64,000 nt of DNA, from contig CAZWIA010000001.1 of assembly GCA_964633955.1 (NCBI GenBank), positions 16,820 through 80,819 on the forward strand, written 5' to 3'. Source of the stretch: an uncultured Candidatus Peribacteria bacterium (GTDB lineage Bacteria > Patescibacteriota > Gracilibacteria > Peribacterales > Peribacteraceae). A program made the position numbers and the translations under genes. Shown in pieces: positions 5,361-48,467 of the stretch (positions are counted from its first letter, which is position 1; the number at the start of each line of letters is the position of its first letter). Under the pieces are notes generated by a model that was given only the letters and a program-made list of their open reading frames with translations, was not told the DNA's origin and made no database searches.

Positions 5361-6773
5361 TCATGGGTGCTCACTCATGAGACGGCTTGTCAGTTCGCCA
5401 ACCGGCACCCGTTCCTGCTCCAGCGTGTCGCGGTCCCTGATGGTGACGGTGTCCCGCTCGCCCTGAGCGGCGTCTTCTCCCAGGGTGCCAAAATCCACCG
5501 TGACGCACTTGGGCGTGCCCACTTCATCCTGGCGGCGGTACCGCTTGCCAATGGATCCTGTGACATCCACGTCCAAGCGCAGGTCCGTCTTGGCGCTGAG
5601 TACGTCATAGATCTCCTGCGCCTTGGCGATCAGGTTCTCCTTCTTGCTGAGCGGCAGGATGGCTGCCTGCACCGGTGCGATCCTGGGATGCAGGTGCAGG
5701 ACCGTGCGGATGTCGCCTTCGCCCATGGCCTGCTCTTCGTACGCTTCCAGGAGCGTCATGAGCGTCAGGCGGGTGAGGCCGAACGTCGGTTCAATGACGT
5801 GCGGGACCAGCTTCTCCGCCGTGTCCGGGTCCGTGTACTGCAGGTCCTCGCCGGACTGTTCAATGTGATTCTTGAGATCAAAGTCCGTGCGGTAGGCCAG
5901 GCCAAAGAGCTCCTTCCAGCCGAACGGGGTATGGTACTCCACGTCCGCCGTACGTTTGGAGTAGTGGGACAGCTCCTCCTTGTCGTGCTCGCGGACGCGC
6001 AGCCGCTCCTCGGAAAACCCCATCTCCTTGAGCCACCGCTTCTGCTCGGCCAGCCAGTACTGAAATGTCTTCTCCCACTCCTGCTCGCGGATGAAGTACT
6101 CGAACTCCATGAGATCAAACTCCAGCGTGCGGAAGGTGAAGTTACCCGGCGTGATCTCATTGCGGAACACCTTGCCCACGCAGGCGATCCCGAACGGGAG
6201 CCGCTTGCGAGAAGTGTTGAGGACATTCTTGAAGTTCACGAACATCGCCTGCGCCAGCTCGCCGCGGAGGTACACGTCCTGGTTCTTGGCGTCGCCCTCC
6301 ACCGCGCCCAGCTGCGTGCGGAAGAGGAGGTTGAACTTCCTGGCGTCCGTGAACTGGTTGCGCGTGCCGCAGTGTGGACAGGGGATGTTCAGCTCCGCGA
6401 TGATCTGGGTCAGCTCCTGAGTGGATTTCCCTTCCACCTTCACGGCGGAGTCAAAGTTCTCAATCAGGTGGTCCGCGCGGTGGCGCGCCTTGCACTGCTT
6501 GCAGTCCACCATCGCGTCATTGAAATTGGCCACGTGGCCGCTGGATTCCCACACGCGCGGGTTCATCAGGATAGCCGGGTCGATCCCCACCATGTCCTGG
6601 CGCTTCTCAACAAAGCGCTCCCACCACCAGTCCCGGATGGCGTTCTTGAGCGTGGTGCCGTAGGGACCGTAGTCCCAGGAGTTGGCCAGTCCTCCGTAAA
6701 TCTCGGATCCGGGAAACACGAAGCCGCGACGCTTGGCGAGGGAGACGACCTGATCTAAAGAGGAGGCAGGCAT
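5361..6773 (-). CDS. glyQS: Glycine--tRNA ligase (alpha2 dimer type)
   Basis: LAKRRGFVFPGSEIYGGLANSWDYGPYG; FRNEITPGNFTFRTLEFDLMEFEYF. Confidence 0.95.
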   Translation of the reverse strand: MPASSLDQVVSLAKRRGFVFPGSEIYGGLANSWDYGPYGTTLKNAIRDWWWERFVEKRQDMVGIDPAILMNPRVWESSGHVANFNDAMVDCKQCKARHRADHLIENFDSAVKVEGKSTQELTQIIAELNIPCPHCGTRNQFTDARKFNLLFRTQLGAVEGDAKNQDVYLRGELAQAMFVNFKNVLNTSRKRLPFGIACVGKVFRNEITPGNFTFRTLEFDLMEFEYFIREQEWEKTFQYWLAEQKRWLKEMGFSEERLRVREHDKEELSHYSKRTADVEYHTPFGWKELFGLAYRTDFDLKNHIEQSGEDLQYTDPDTAEKLVPHVIEPTFGLTRLTLMTLLEAYEEQAMGEGDIRTVLHLHPRIAPVQAAILPLSKKENLIAKAQEIYDVLSAKTDLRLDVDVTGSIGKRYRRQDEVGTPKCVTVDFGTLGEDAAQGERDTVTIRDRDTLEQERVPVGELTSRLMSEHP

Positions 6774-16421: not shown

Positions 16422-17777
16422 TCAGTCCGCATCTACCGCCTCGTCCATCCGGTCGCGCAGCGCGTAGGTGTCTAGGTTCTCCTTTCCAAGCAGCTGGATG
16501 ATCTGCTTAATGGCTTGGTCAAAGGGGATCTGCTGCTGCTTCCCCGCCTGCATGTCCCGCAGAATGATGGTGTTCTCCTTCACCTCCAGCTTTCCCAGGA
16601 GCAGGGTGTAGCGCGCTGCAAATTTGTCCGCCAGGCGCATCTGACTCTTGAGGCTGGCCTCACCCAGTGCGCCGAGCGTATGCACGCCCAGCTCCCGCAG
16701 GTCCGCCACCAGCTTCAGGCACTTCTGCTTGGCCTCCGGTCCCAGCTGCGCCACAAACACGTCCACCTGGTCCTTATTGGGCACCTGCACGCCCGCCTCC
16801 TTCATGTGCCAGATGATCCGTTCCATCCCGCCCGCAAACCCCACGCCGGGCGTGGGCTTGCCGCCCAGGATCTCCATGAGGCCGTCATACCGGCCGCCGC
16901 CGCCAACGGCGTTCTGCGCGCCAGTGCTCTGGTCCCAGAACTCAAAGACCGTCTGGTTGTAGTAATCCAGCCCGCGCACCAGGCTTGGGTTATCCGTCCA
17001 GCTCACGCCCAGCTCGGTCAGGTATTCCTTCAGCGTCTCGTGGTACTGCGCGCTCTCCGGGCTCACAAACTGGCTCAGGGACGGGGCGCCCTTGAGGAGG
17101 ATCTGCGTGTCTTCCTGCTTGGAATCCAGGAGCCGCAGCGGGTTATGCGCCAGGCGCGACCGGTCCTCCTCCGGCAGCTGGCGCTCCTTGCCGGCAAAGA
17201 AGTCCTTCAGCGCCTCCACAAAGGCCGACCTGTGCTGCGCGTCCCCAATGTTATTGAGCTGCAGCGTCAGGCGGTTCAGGATCTTCAGATCCTTCAGGAT
17301 CCGCGTGACCGCGTAGATGAGCTGCGCGTCCAGGCTGGGATCCTTCAGGCCGATTACCTCCAGATCAAACTGGTGGAACTGCCGGTAGCGGCCCTTCTGG
17401 GGGCGGTCGTACCGGAAGCAGGGGCCGATGGCGTAGAGCTCCACCGGCTGCGGGAGCTGCTGCATGCCGTGCTCCAGGTACGCGCGGCAGATGCCCGCCG
17501 TGAATTCCGGTCGCAGCGCGAACTCCTTCATGACCGCGTCCTCCCCGGCGGAGCTGTGCTGCCCCCGCACCGTGAAGAGCTCCTTCTCCACAATATCCGT
17601 GTGCACGCCTATCCCGCGCTCAAAGACCGCCGGGTGCTCGAACATGGGCGGATCGATCCGCTTGTAGCCCGCTTGGCGGGCGCGATGGCGCACGGCCTTC
17701 TTGATGTACGTGTGGTACATCTGCTCCTCCGGGAGGACGTCGTGCGTGCCTTTGGGGGTGCGGATCAGCTCGGCCAT
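16422..17777 (-). CDS. hisS: Histidine--tRNA ligase
   Basis: MAELIRTPKGTHDVLPEE; CFRYDRPQKGRYRQFHQFDLEVIG; GGGRYDGL. Confidence 0.95.
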   Translation of the reverse strand: MAELIRTPKGTHDVLPEEQMYHTYIKKAVRHRARQAGYKRIDPPMFEHPAVFERGIGVHTDIVEKELFTVRGQHSSAGEDAVMKEFALRPEFTAGICRAYLEHGMQQLPQPVELYAIGPCFRYDRPQKGRYRQFHQFDLEVIGLKDPSLDAQLIYAVTRILKDLKILNRLTLQLNNIGDAQHRSAFVEALKDFFAGKERQLPEEDRSRLAHNPLRLLDSKQEDTQILLKGAPSLSQFVSPESAQYHETLKEYLTELGVSWTDNPSLVRGLDYYNQTVFEFWDQSTGAQNAVGGGGRYDGLMEILGGKPTPGVGFAGGMERIIWHMKEAGVQVPNKDQVDVFVAQLGPEAKQKCLKLVADLRELGVHTLGALGEASLKSQMRLADKFAARYTLLLGKLEVKENTIILRDMQAGKQQQIPFDQAIKQIIQLLGKENLDTYALRDRMDEAVDAD

Positions 17778-17990
17778 GGCAAAACGGCTTGGGAACCGGA
17801 AAAAGTACAACGGCTAGCATACCACGGTCTCCCGATCGGCCAAGGGGTTTCCAGACCTGGATTTGCCGTCTGGACAGGCAGTCGCCCATCTTGGCAAAGC
17901 TCCGTTGCGGCGGAAATGAGGAAATTATGCACTCCAGTGCCTGTTCTTCGCTCATTGCATTCTGGGCAAGCCCCGTCTGCTTCAGCTGAC

Positions 17991-18115
17991 TGGGGCGAGC
18001 GACGGGAGTCGAACCCGCGACCCTCTGGACCACAACCAGATGCGGCTGCGCCGCAGAGAGTCTTTCTTCTTGCACCTCGCGTCAACGCTCGGTGGCCCAC
18101 TGAGCTCCGCTCGCC
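17991..18115 (-). tRNA. tRNA-His-like gene with a 48-nt insertion between D arm and anticodon arm (pseudogene or regulatory mimic?)
   Basis: The 3' 53 nt are identical to tRNA-His (anticodon arm, T arm, acceptor, CCA). The 5' end GGCGAGCGgAGCUCAGUGG matches except for U8G. Confidence 0.45.
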
Positions 18116-18154
18116 AAAGGAAGGACTGTCTGTGTGAGGAGATGAATCGTACGA

Positions 18155-18231
18155 TGGGGCGAGCGACGGGAGTCGAACCCGCGACCCTCTGGACCACAAC
18201 CAGATGCTCTAACCACTGAGCTACGCTCGCC
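18155..18231 (-). tRNA. tRNA-His (GUG), with encoded G-1 and CCA
   Basis: Manual cloverleaf: GGCGAGCG UA GCUC AGUGGUUA GAGC A UCUGG UUGUGGU CCAGA GGGUC GCGGG UUCGACU CCCGU CGCUCGC C CCA. Confidence 0.92.
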
Positions 18232-18324
18232 ATGAGAAGATTCAGCCAAATGAACGAAACCCTCAGTCCTGCTCAGCCAAGGGCCTGCGCATTGTAGGGG
18301 AAACTGCGCGTGAGACAACACCGC

Positions 18325-30478: not shown

Positions 30479-30988
30479 ATGCCTCAGAAGCACCTCTCCC
30501 AAGAGGGAACGTTCCACGTCACCACCAACGCCAAGGGCCGCATGCCGTGGTGTACATTGCCGGGCGTGCCGGAGATCCTGATCGATAACCTGTGCATGAC
30601 GCGGTCGGTCCACCGGGCGGAGCTGTTTGCGTTCTGCGTGTTGCCGGACCACGTGCACATGGTGATCCGGCCGGGGGAGAGAGGATTGAGCCGGTTCGTG
30701 CAATCGTTCAAATCCCATGCCATGGTGGAGATTCGTTCCCTGTTTACAAACGTGAATCCCGTAGCAGCGAGCCATGGCTCGCTGCTACGATTACGTGTGA
30801 GGGATATCTTGTGGCAAAAGGGCTATCATGACGAACACATCCAGGATGATGACCAGCTCCACGCCGCCTTGGCGTACGTGCGGGCTAACGCCTGCCGGCA
30901 CGGCCTTTCTGAGACGCCGGAGGACTGGCCGTGGACCTCGCTGCACTTTGGCGATCGGCTGGATGTCTGGAGCCCGTGGTTCGACTGA
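30479..30988 (+). CDS. REP-associated tyrosine transposase (RAYT) / IS200-like Y1 HUH transposase
   Basis: HUH motif LPDHVHMVI; LWQKGYHDEHI; catalytic-Tyr motif LAYVRANACRHGL. Confidence 0.8.
   Translation: MPQKHLSQEGTFHVTTNAKGRMPWCTLPGVPEILIDNLCMTRSVHRAELFAFCVLPDHVHMVIRPGERGLSRFVQSFKSHAMVEIRSLFTNVNPVAASHGSLLRLRVRDILWQKGYHDEHIQDDDQLHAALAYVRANACRHGLSETPEDWPWTSLHFGDRLDVWSPWFD
30760..30789. repeat. 30-nt perfect palindrome with GTAG/CTAC feet inside the RAYT gene
   Basis: cgtagcagcgagccatggctcgctgctacg, read directly. Confidence 0.85.
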
Positions 30989-48398: not shown

Positions 48399-48467
48399 TG
48401 GAGGGAGGAGGAATCGAACCTCCGCGGTCGGCCTAAGGCCGATGCTCTACCACTGAGCTACCCCTCC
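48399..48467 (-). tRNA. Atypical 69-nt tRNA-like gene; anticodon arm 2 nt short and centred on UUA; no encoded CCA
   Basis: GGAGGGG UA GCUC AGUGGUA GAGC A UCGGCC-UUA-GGCCGA CCGC GGAGG UUCGAUU CCUCC UCCCUCC A. Confidence 0.5.

Follow-up and report, generated by a model that had tools for sequence, protein, structure and literature searches.

The window, by which we mean the whole 64,000-nucleotide stretch of Peribacteria DNA that was analysed, carries on its minus strand the sole tRNA-His gene of a 1.02-Mb genome (99.8% complete), followed by a tRNA-His-like variant and then by hisS (Table 1). The order and limits of these genes, and the lengths of the two spacers that separate them, are as the first-pass annotation had placed them. 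We looked for a terminator-like site in the spacer between the tRNA and the variant and found none, and the genome holds no second copy of the spacer that precedes hisS. The product of hisS is 66–78% identical to the HisRS of most family relatives. We treat hisS as a neighbour of the element described below and as no part of it.

Table 1. Features of the tRNA-His/hisS locus, listed in the direction of the minus strand.
Feature	Coordinates	Strand	Basis or remark
Promoter-like site TTGTCT-16-TACAAT, 5′ of the canonical tRNA-His (predicted)	18291..18318	-	Consensus scan
Canonical tRNA-His(GUG) with encoded G-1 and CCA; the intact "twin"	18155..18231	-	ARAGORN 18230-18155; Rfam tRNA 68.6 bits
39-nt spacer, twin to variant	18116..18154	-	Strain SNP at 18124
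125-nt tRNA-His-like variant	17991..18115	-	Pairwise alignment with tRNA-His
Variant 5′ part, equal to tRNA-His nt -1 to 19 with U8→G	18097..18115	-	Alignment
Module hairpin 1, CACC-GA-GCG-UUGA-CGC-GA-GGUG	18073..18094	-	Fold; model R2 46.5 bits
A-rich single-stranded linker CAAGAAGAAAGACUCUCU	18055..18072	-	A-rich in every family member
Module hairpin 2, GCGGC-GCA-GCCGC (GC stem and GCA triloop)	18042..18054	-	Covarying forms in the family
Variant 3′ part: A26, anticodon arm (GUG), variable loop, T arm, acceptor 3′ strand, C73, CCA	17991..18041	-	Identical to twin
213-nt spacer before hisS, with extended -10-like box TGGTATGCT inside at 17824-17816	17778..17990	-	
hisS, histidyl-tRNA synthetase, 451 aa, ATG at 17777	16422..17777	-	Pfam tRNA-synt_His and HGTP_anticodon; alignment to relatives

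Pairwise alignment agrees with the earlier description of the two RNAs as sharing an identical 3′ part of 53 nt (17991–18043 = 18155–18207) and nearly identical 5′ ends, with a single difference, U8→G, in the 5′ 19 nt. The common 5′ part covers the acceptor 5′ strand, the D-stem 5′ strand and the D-loop as far as G18G19. Between the common parts, 53 nt stand in place of 5 nt (TTAGA), which are nt 20–24 of the D-arm. The "48 extra nt" of the first-pass annotation are therefore correct as a net gain, but what took place is a replacement, in which the last GC of the D-stem 3′ strand has been kept. This GC now forms the end of hairpin 2, to which a flanking U and A26 can contribute a sixth pair. 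Hairpin 1 is built of 4 bp, a tandem GA/GA internal loop, 3 bp and a tetraloop. The variant retains G-1:C73, the full acceptor helix, the T arm, the anticodon arm and CCA; it has no D-stem and, in the window strain, no U8.

Scoring both RNAs with the Rfam tRNA model (RF00005), a check that had been proposed at the outset, separates them clearly: the canonical gene reaches 68.6 bits, and the variant reaches 25.9, below the gathering score of 29, in an alignment that skips the 5′ part and is D-arm-less. With its sub-threshold score and missing D-stem 3′ strand, the variant is not a canonical tRNA, and ARAGORN miscalls 17991–18092 as a 102-nt tRNA-Arg(gcg). Searches of Rfam with the variant, both at the gathering threshold and at E ≤ 10, gave no ribozyme family, T-box, other leader family or RtT RNA; the weak matches to YrlA, ycf2 and others at the permissive setting (E about 1 or higher) were set aside as tRNA-sequence artefacts. 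The minimum-energy fold of the variant (-64 kcal/mol) pairs the linker/hairpin-2 region with the 3′ side of the anticodon arm, an alternative that is unconserved among relatives, and the family consensus fold has an energy of -49.7, or -56.3 with further pairs permitted.

The locus is no assembly artefact, as the same junctions occur in an independent metagenome. The arrangement occurs in Logan contigs of several wastewater, sludge and aquaculture runs that are unrelated, and one 171-nt contig from an unrelated aquaculture metagenome (X2) spans 18014–18184, including the 3′ part of the variant, the insert, the 5′ part, the spacer and the end of the canonical gene. The X2 strain differs by three SNPs, which fall in the first module base (18096), the 5′ arm (18107) and the spacer (18124), and by none across 736 flanking bases. 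At 18107 it reads T, which restores T8; U8→G is therefore specific to the window strain, and the ancestral 5′ part of the variant was identical to that of its twin. In the wastewater metatranscriptomes that we searched, tRNA-His came from other organisms only.

Close relatives present a simpler picture at this locus. BLAST against 40 relatives recovered only canonical tRNA-His, and in all four species of the same genus tRNA-His is followed by hisS on the same strand with no second copy. The spacer between tRNA-His and hisS in the window genome is too diverged to align with those of the same-genus species, two of which (G002 and G003) have an AT-rich island (about 0.5–0.7 kb) after tRNA-His that ends in a degenerate copy of the tRNA-His 3′ end. 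Among 52 metagenomic hisS loci, whose HisRS are 53–78% identical to that of the window (none closer than 78%), about 15 have tRNA-His nearby, and none has a hairpin-1 match within 1.5 kb upstream.

The insert itself has relatives elsewhere in the family. A pattern search for a tRNA-His D-loop and anticodon lying 36–66 nt apart, run over 200 family genomes, matched six of them, from five genera, with the same insert architecture by tRNA-His. All six His variants lie 10–175 nt downstream of the canonical tRNA-His of their own genome, and their arms track the host tRNA-His, with acceptor GAGCG, GATCG or GGTCG and with anticodon-stem and T-stem variants. The architecture of the insert is constant in all six, consisting of hairpin 1, an A-rich linker and hairpin 2; the sequence of the linker is unconserved across family members, despite its A-richness. 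We built covariance models of the unit (R1) and of hairpin 1 (R2). R1 matches 53 of the 200 family genomes, in 30 genera, and all its matches in a 401-genome sample of the class fall within the host's GTDB family. At 18042–18096 the window scores 89.1 bits with R1 and 46.5 bits with R2, and its insert is a full instance of the module as defined by a GA/GA hairpin 1, an A-rich linker and a GNA-triloop hairpin 2 after G18G19.

The module is not confined to tRNA-His. In the matches that we inspected, it occurs directly after G18G19 in partial or complete tRNA copies that represent at least 16 anticodons, namely His, Met, Arg (UCG, CCG, GCG), Ala (UGC, CGC, GGC), Pro (UGG, GGG, CGG), Val (GAC, UAC), Thr (CGU, GGU), Trp, Lys and Phe. 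A matched intact twin lies at most 450 nt away in 39 of 45 scored units; most of the units without one stand at contig or locus ends, and the 480 nt that precede the unit in G191:C12 contain no tRNA. For nearly all inspected units the intact version of the tRNA is found on the same strand within about 20–200 nt. The tRNA-derived arms copy this neighbouring twin, and the module is common to different tRNAs and genomes. Run over 11 genomes, R2 finds a single match in the window genome, its His unit, and 2–8 matches in each of seven other genomes (eight in G115); it finds none in the same-genus G002 and G004, nor in G092, where the units have a divergent hairpin 1. All 33 matches of at least 19 bits, from eight genomes, lie in a tRNA-derived context after a tRNA D-loop, and the two weakest R2 matches, of 17 bits and inside coding DNA, were judged to be noise. 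Within genera the distribution is sporadic, with different tRNAs affected in different species. Arrays with two units after one tRNA occur, as do eroded copies, and some units have a second insert in the T-loop. The module is thus restricted to one lineage, specific to one tRNA position, structurally constrained and located in spare tRNA copies. Our literature searches found no description of such a family, and the window variant is one member of what is apparently an undescribed family in Peribacteria (CPR).

Covariation supports both hairpins. In the six His copies, 88.5% of the proposed pairs are paired and eight pairs have double changes, and the observed score is reached by none of 500 shuffles. 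For hairpin 1, a gap-free alignment of 20 copies is 99.3% paired with double changes in six of seven pairs, and a model-based alignment of 48 matches (44 distinct) is 96.7% paired with double changes in all seven; again, none of 500 shuffles reaches the observed score. Controls in which the pairing was slid all collapse (10–71% paired, covariation ≤0.05 versus 0.44). Double changes account for 47 cells, and no one-sided (G·U) change is seen in 303 cells. Both GA dinucleotides are nearly invariant, as is the GCA triloop, and the GA/GA loop is of the tandem sheared type. Hairpin 2 occurs in the covarying forms GCGGC/GCCGC, GCCGC/GCGGC, GCGC/GCGC, GAGC/GCUC and GACGC/GCGUC, and its closing pair is now and then U·G. 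Read on the opposite strand, the GA/GA loop would become UC/UC; this loop, like the U·G pairs, makes sense only if the hairpins form on the tRNA-sense strand. Inspected by eye, hairpin 1 has neither the CUGANGA/GAAA core of a hammerhead nor the 3-nt bulge of a K-turn.

Units come in two layouts. Downstream twins, as in the window, consist of a variable 5′ arm (full length down to 2 nt), the module and a complete 3′ arm. Upstream "mini" units consist of a complete 5′ arm, hairpin 1, the linker and a few native nt (about 23–31) closed by a short inverted complement, after which 30–45 nt lead to the twin; in the Val and Ala mini units it reaches as far as GCGCTCTAGCC, which is the twin's GGCTAGAGCGC in reverse complement. 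Mini units keep 75–91 nt between hairpin 1 and the +1 of the twin regardless of the tRNA, and many possess their own -10-like boxes. In most of 39 pairs, unit and twin cease to be homologous within a few nt of the twin's mature 5′ end, so that the 5′ limits cluster at its +1; the range is -13 to +9, with the positive values, which denote truncation, found mainly in downstream twins. At the 3′ side of downstream twins homology usually stops at CCA or directly behind it, but some exceptions run on for 12 to 100 nt or more. These boundary regularities fit mature-tRNA-shaped copies or long-term gene conversion from a constrained twin.

How such units might arise can be proposed with moderate confidence: we consider a tRNA-gene-specific duplicative insertion process their most likely origin, and a functional tRNA-like RNA the less favoured alternative. 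A small non-autonomous element would enter tRNA genes by duplicative insertion and would survive only in the spare copy, because a cell could not live with an insertion in its only gene. Afterwards the arms would be held identical by gene conversion from the twin, recombination between the direct repeats would delete units with no scar left, and selection would maintain the hairpins, either to let the element propagate or to have its transcript processed harmlessly. We rank an insertion element first because the spread is sporadic, some genomes are multicopy, units erode and form arrays, G·U changes are missing and units persist only where an intact gene is left. Some genomes have 5–8 copies, against one here, and multiple copies within some genomes are near-identical; the clustering of 5′ limits at the twin's +1 is likewise element-like. 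We found no enzyme, terminal repeats, target-site duplication or empty/filled site pair for the units. A search of their neighbours for a recurrent protein family returned only His-locus synteny, and Pfam on four neighbouring ORFs from six His loci gave no integrase and nothing mobile. In the window, the variant is probably co-transcribed with tRNA-His, since no terminator follows the latter; its acceptor helix, T arm and CCA are intact, so that RNase P could then cleave it and HisRS bind it, by analogy with the known minimal substrates of these enzymes. Decoding by the variant is unlikely because it has no D-stem.

A counterpoint comes from sister species, where His loci (G158 and G159) and the three Pro-GGG loci of one genus (G157, G158 and G159) keep the hairpins via compensatory changes while spacers and linkers diverge. 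Such upkeep at the same tRNA resembles selection acting locally, and hence function, and the constant size of the mini units, together with their own -10-like boxes, suggests a defined transcription unit. On a functional reading, the module would make a stable RNA of use to the host, and unable to decode, out of a spare tRNA copy. This RNA might be a decoy or sensor for proteins with affinity for the cognate tRNA (aminoacyl-tRNA synthetases, RNase P, modification enzymes or anticodon nucleases), or, as a leader or trailer, might tune how the neighbouring tRNA matures. In the window this would be a tRNA-His mimic competent for HisRS and RNase P, which agrees with its intact G-1:C73 acceptor stem, T arm, anticodon arm and CCA, just as the confinement of the module to tRNA-derived contexts and its nearly invariant GA/GA loop and GCA triloop agree with function in general. 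We nevertheless regard a host-serving RNA as a somewhat unlikely explanation, as units are present in only 53 of 200 genomes, at tRNAs that vary by species and in numbers from one here to eight in G115, and as many copies have lost some of their acceptor 5′ strand or 3′ end, which leaves no single tRNA-like shape conserved. The complete lack of G·U among 47 covarying cells is also unusual for an RNA helix, and the X2 strain has all three of its differences in the unit and spacer, none in the flanks. A still more speculative and rather improbable idea is that the units are made by a copying system not known so far, for which the tRNA itself would be template or guide. In one version, the mature tRNA, from +1 (or G-1 for His) to CCA, would be copied through an RNA intermediate and the module joined by template switching near the D-loop, giving a bacterial SINE-like retrocopy; in another, the tRNA-derived arms would be homing guides of a tiny element that needs little protein and enters at the D-loop, always leaving an intact gene alongside.

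The three origins suggested by the first-pass annotation, namely an att footprint, a decaying duplicate and a regulatory mimic in the hisS leader, fared less well. The 53-nt repeat could be the att core (attL/attR) of an integrative element that entered tRNA-His and was then nearly all deleted: the identity block runs from the D-stem end just before position 26 to CCA, which we take to be the anticodon-loop type of att site in the sublocation classes of Williams (2002), and the islands of G002 and G003 with their degenerate tRNA-His 3′ copies, as well as a 1.4-kb island between two module-bearing Ala units in G079, would suit such an origin. A scar is nonetheless very unlikely. Only 113 nt lie between the repeats, 19 of which are tRNA 5′ part; the copy thus also has tRNA nt -1 to 19, matching the host, and upstream mini units are without any 3′ repeat. 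The module moreover occurs at 16 or more tRNAs with neither an integrase nor a common neighbouring gene. What the window shows of an att duplication is the direct repeat of 53 nt, and not the element DNA or a copy limited to the tRNA 3′ part. An interrupted tRNA-His that functions after removal of its insert, or an ordinary decaying tandem duplicate hit by a chance insertion, has hardly any probability in our view. The arms in the window are perfect, and some family copies are clearly eroded; however, joining the flanks leaves nt 20–24 missing and thus gives no D-stem, which together with the Rfam score bears out the initial judgement that the variant is neither a normal tRNA nor one with a removable intron. 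There is no match to a ribozyme family, a group I intron would have to be much longer than the 53-nt insert, and an intact twin adjoins nearly every inspected unit. Decay describes the flanks, which erode in many members, but not the insert: a module with compensatory changes, present in at least 44 distinct covarying copies, is not explained by chance insertion. Equally remote is a tRNA-His mimic in the hisS leader that HisRS would bind for autoregulation, in the manner of the thrS operator, tempting as it is given a variant on the same strand 213 nt 5′ of hisS, with the HisRS identity elements G-1:C73 and GUG anticodon and no terminator-like site in between. Its absence from close relatives, one of the observations that had been named beforehand as telling against a mimic, applies to all four same-genus species that keep tRNA-His before hisS and to all 52 metagenomic hisS loci. 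The other five His units of the pattern search are not next to hisS (in G115 it is 1.3 kb away), and the module accompanies many other tRNAs that are not beside their synthetases. Furthermore, hisS has its own extended -10-like box, TGGTATGCT, 38 nt before its ATG, comparable to the TGnTAnnnT boxes that stand 12–15 nt before the ATG in relatives, and neither a T-box nor another leader family was detected with Rfam (E ≤ 10). A synthetase-leader regulator of the thrS or T-box type was rejected because relatives do not have the unit in their hisS leaders. The link of the unit is to tRNA genes and not to hisS, and the variant does not represent a conserved mechanism of hisS regulation.

Few sequences in any genome are as conserved or as well annotated as tRNA genes, and yet dozens of genomes of one bacterial family carry unannotated, structured tRNA twins that standard tools miss or miscall. 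If the module is mobile, it would be a very small element with specificity for a single position in the tRNA D-loop and a built-in sparing of its essential target. If it is functional, tRNA-derived RNAs of a new class would have to be recognised in minimal genomes, which are expected to retain little non-coding DNA. In both cases, the reading of the window variant as a HisRS-autoregulatory mimic is corrected, and two covariance models are now available for mapping the module family.

Several known systems share features with these units. The att duplications left by phages, ICEs and genomic islands likewise place a direct repeat of a tRNA 3′ part beside an intact gene; here, an element body and an integrase are missing, the 5′ part is included, a two-hairpin module occupies the D-loop and mini forms exist. 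RtT RNA and the tyrT-tyrV repeats of E. coli (RF00391) are units with a tRNA 3′ end that follow a tRNA gene and are co-transcribed with it, their function being unclear. They resemble our units as repeats by a tRNA gene that contain its 3′ end, and differ in structure, lineage and position within the tRNA copy, with no Rfam match here. REP/REPIN sequences with RAYT, the RPE of Rickettsia and MITEs are also short, GC-rich, multicopy, non-coding hairpins whose consensus is kept across genomes, whereas the module is found at one tRNA position only and has no terminal inverted repeats, target duplication or adjacent GTAG foot. A GTAG palindrome elsewhere in the window (30760–30789) was considered as a sign of a REP/RAYT relation and rejected, being unrelated in sequence to the module. 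Archaeal non-canonical introns and split tRNAs, and the tRNA-like domain of tmRNA, are similar in their interruption of the D-loop or D-arm and in having acceptor and T arms without a D-stem. In comparison with archaeal introns, excision here restores no tRNA, no bulge-helix-bulge motif is evident, the lineage is bacterial and an intact twin is nearly always present. Eukaryotic tRNA-derived SINEs, finally, also combine a tRNA-derived head with an unrelated structured body, and the units recall them in that their 5′ limits cluster at the mature tRNA 5′ end with variable truncation and their 3′ limit is often CCA. Unlike SINEs, the units described here adjoin the matching tRNA gene instead of being dispersed, and they carry their module inside the tRNA body and not after it.

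Variation between strains was found to be concentrated around the module-bearing tRNA-His copy, a spare tRNA-His-like gene that contains the two-hairpin insert. Strain X2, a Logan contig from an aquaculture metagenome with the same tRNA-His/variant junctions, shows three differences from the window, all inside a 29-nt stretch, and none in 736 flanking bases, which constitutes locally excess variation around this copy. Further upstream lies an ORF of 99 aa that contains an internal repeat (ENRLLAAMDEK/ENRMLAAMEDL) and for which a Pfam match was not found.

Features in the window and in genomes of relatives (G079, G012, G158)
Feature	Position	Strand	Description
Extended -10-like box	17816-17824		38 nt from the hisS ATG
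X2 difference	18096		first module base
X2 difference	18107		position 8 of the 5' arm
X2 difference	18124		spacer
ORF, 99 aa	18325-18624	-	between tRNA-His and the PKD-domain surface protein gene
tRNA-like gene	48399-48467	-	ARAGORN: tRNA-Stop(UUA); Rfam tRNA: 62.8 bits
Duplicated tRNA-Ala block (L081)	G079:C6 50091-52800		two copies, ~1.6 kb apart
tRNA-His units with N runs (L021/L036)	G012:C2 ~6000-6400		~100 N
tRNA-His units with N runs (L028/L034)	G158:C22		~100 N

Among relatives, some of the module-bearing twins have, besides the module, another conserved insert located in their T-loop (…TTCRA-CCTGYCC…GCGAAG…GGRTCC…), observed in L025 (G067 His), L045 (G191 Arg), L047/L081 (G079 Ala), L049 (G215 Met), L060 (G212 Thr), and L021 (G012). 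As the module occupies the D-loop, the D-loop/T-loop elbow of these tRNAs is flanked by both inserts. The duplicated block in G079 comprises the 3' end of tRNA-Ala(UGC), a 96-nt flank, and the module-bearing Ala twin, with ~1.4 kb of lower-GC DNA containing small ORFs separating the two twins. In G012, mini units (complete 5' arm, hairpin 1, linker, and a few native nucleotides) are repeated, accompanied by a degenerate tRNA-His truncated at its 5' side; the N runs that break up the module-bearing tRNA-His units of G012 and G158 represent either masking or scaffold gaps.

Directly 3' of tRNA-His, two same-genus species (G002, L008/L022; G003, L015/L023) harbor an AT-rich insert of ~0.5-0.7 kb with a small ORF. 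Both inserts terminate in a degenerate repeat of the final 16-20 nt of tRNA-His (for example, CCCGTAGCTCATCCCA vs CCCGTCGCTCGCCCCA). They represent small islands that occupy an att-like site and are distinct from the module family.

Upstream of hisS, the window and its relatives in this GTDB family share an extended -10-like box (TGnTAnnnT). Its distance to the ATG in the relatives is 12-15 nt, a spacing that suggests a near-leaderless hisS mRNA.

Elsewhere in the window, a tRNA-like gene shows an acceptor, D-arm, and T-arm of normal appearance, lacks an encoded CCA, and has an anticodon arm (TCGGCC-TTA-GGCCGA) that places a 3-nt loop on a 6-bp stem. This gene is probably a further aberrant tRNA copy rather than a genuine ochre suppressor.
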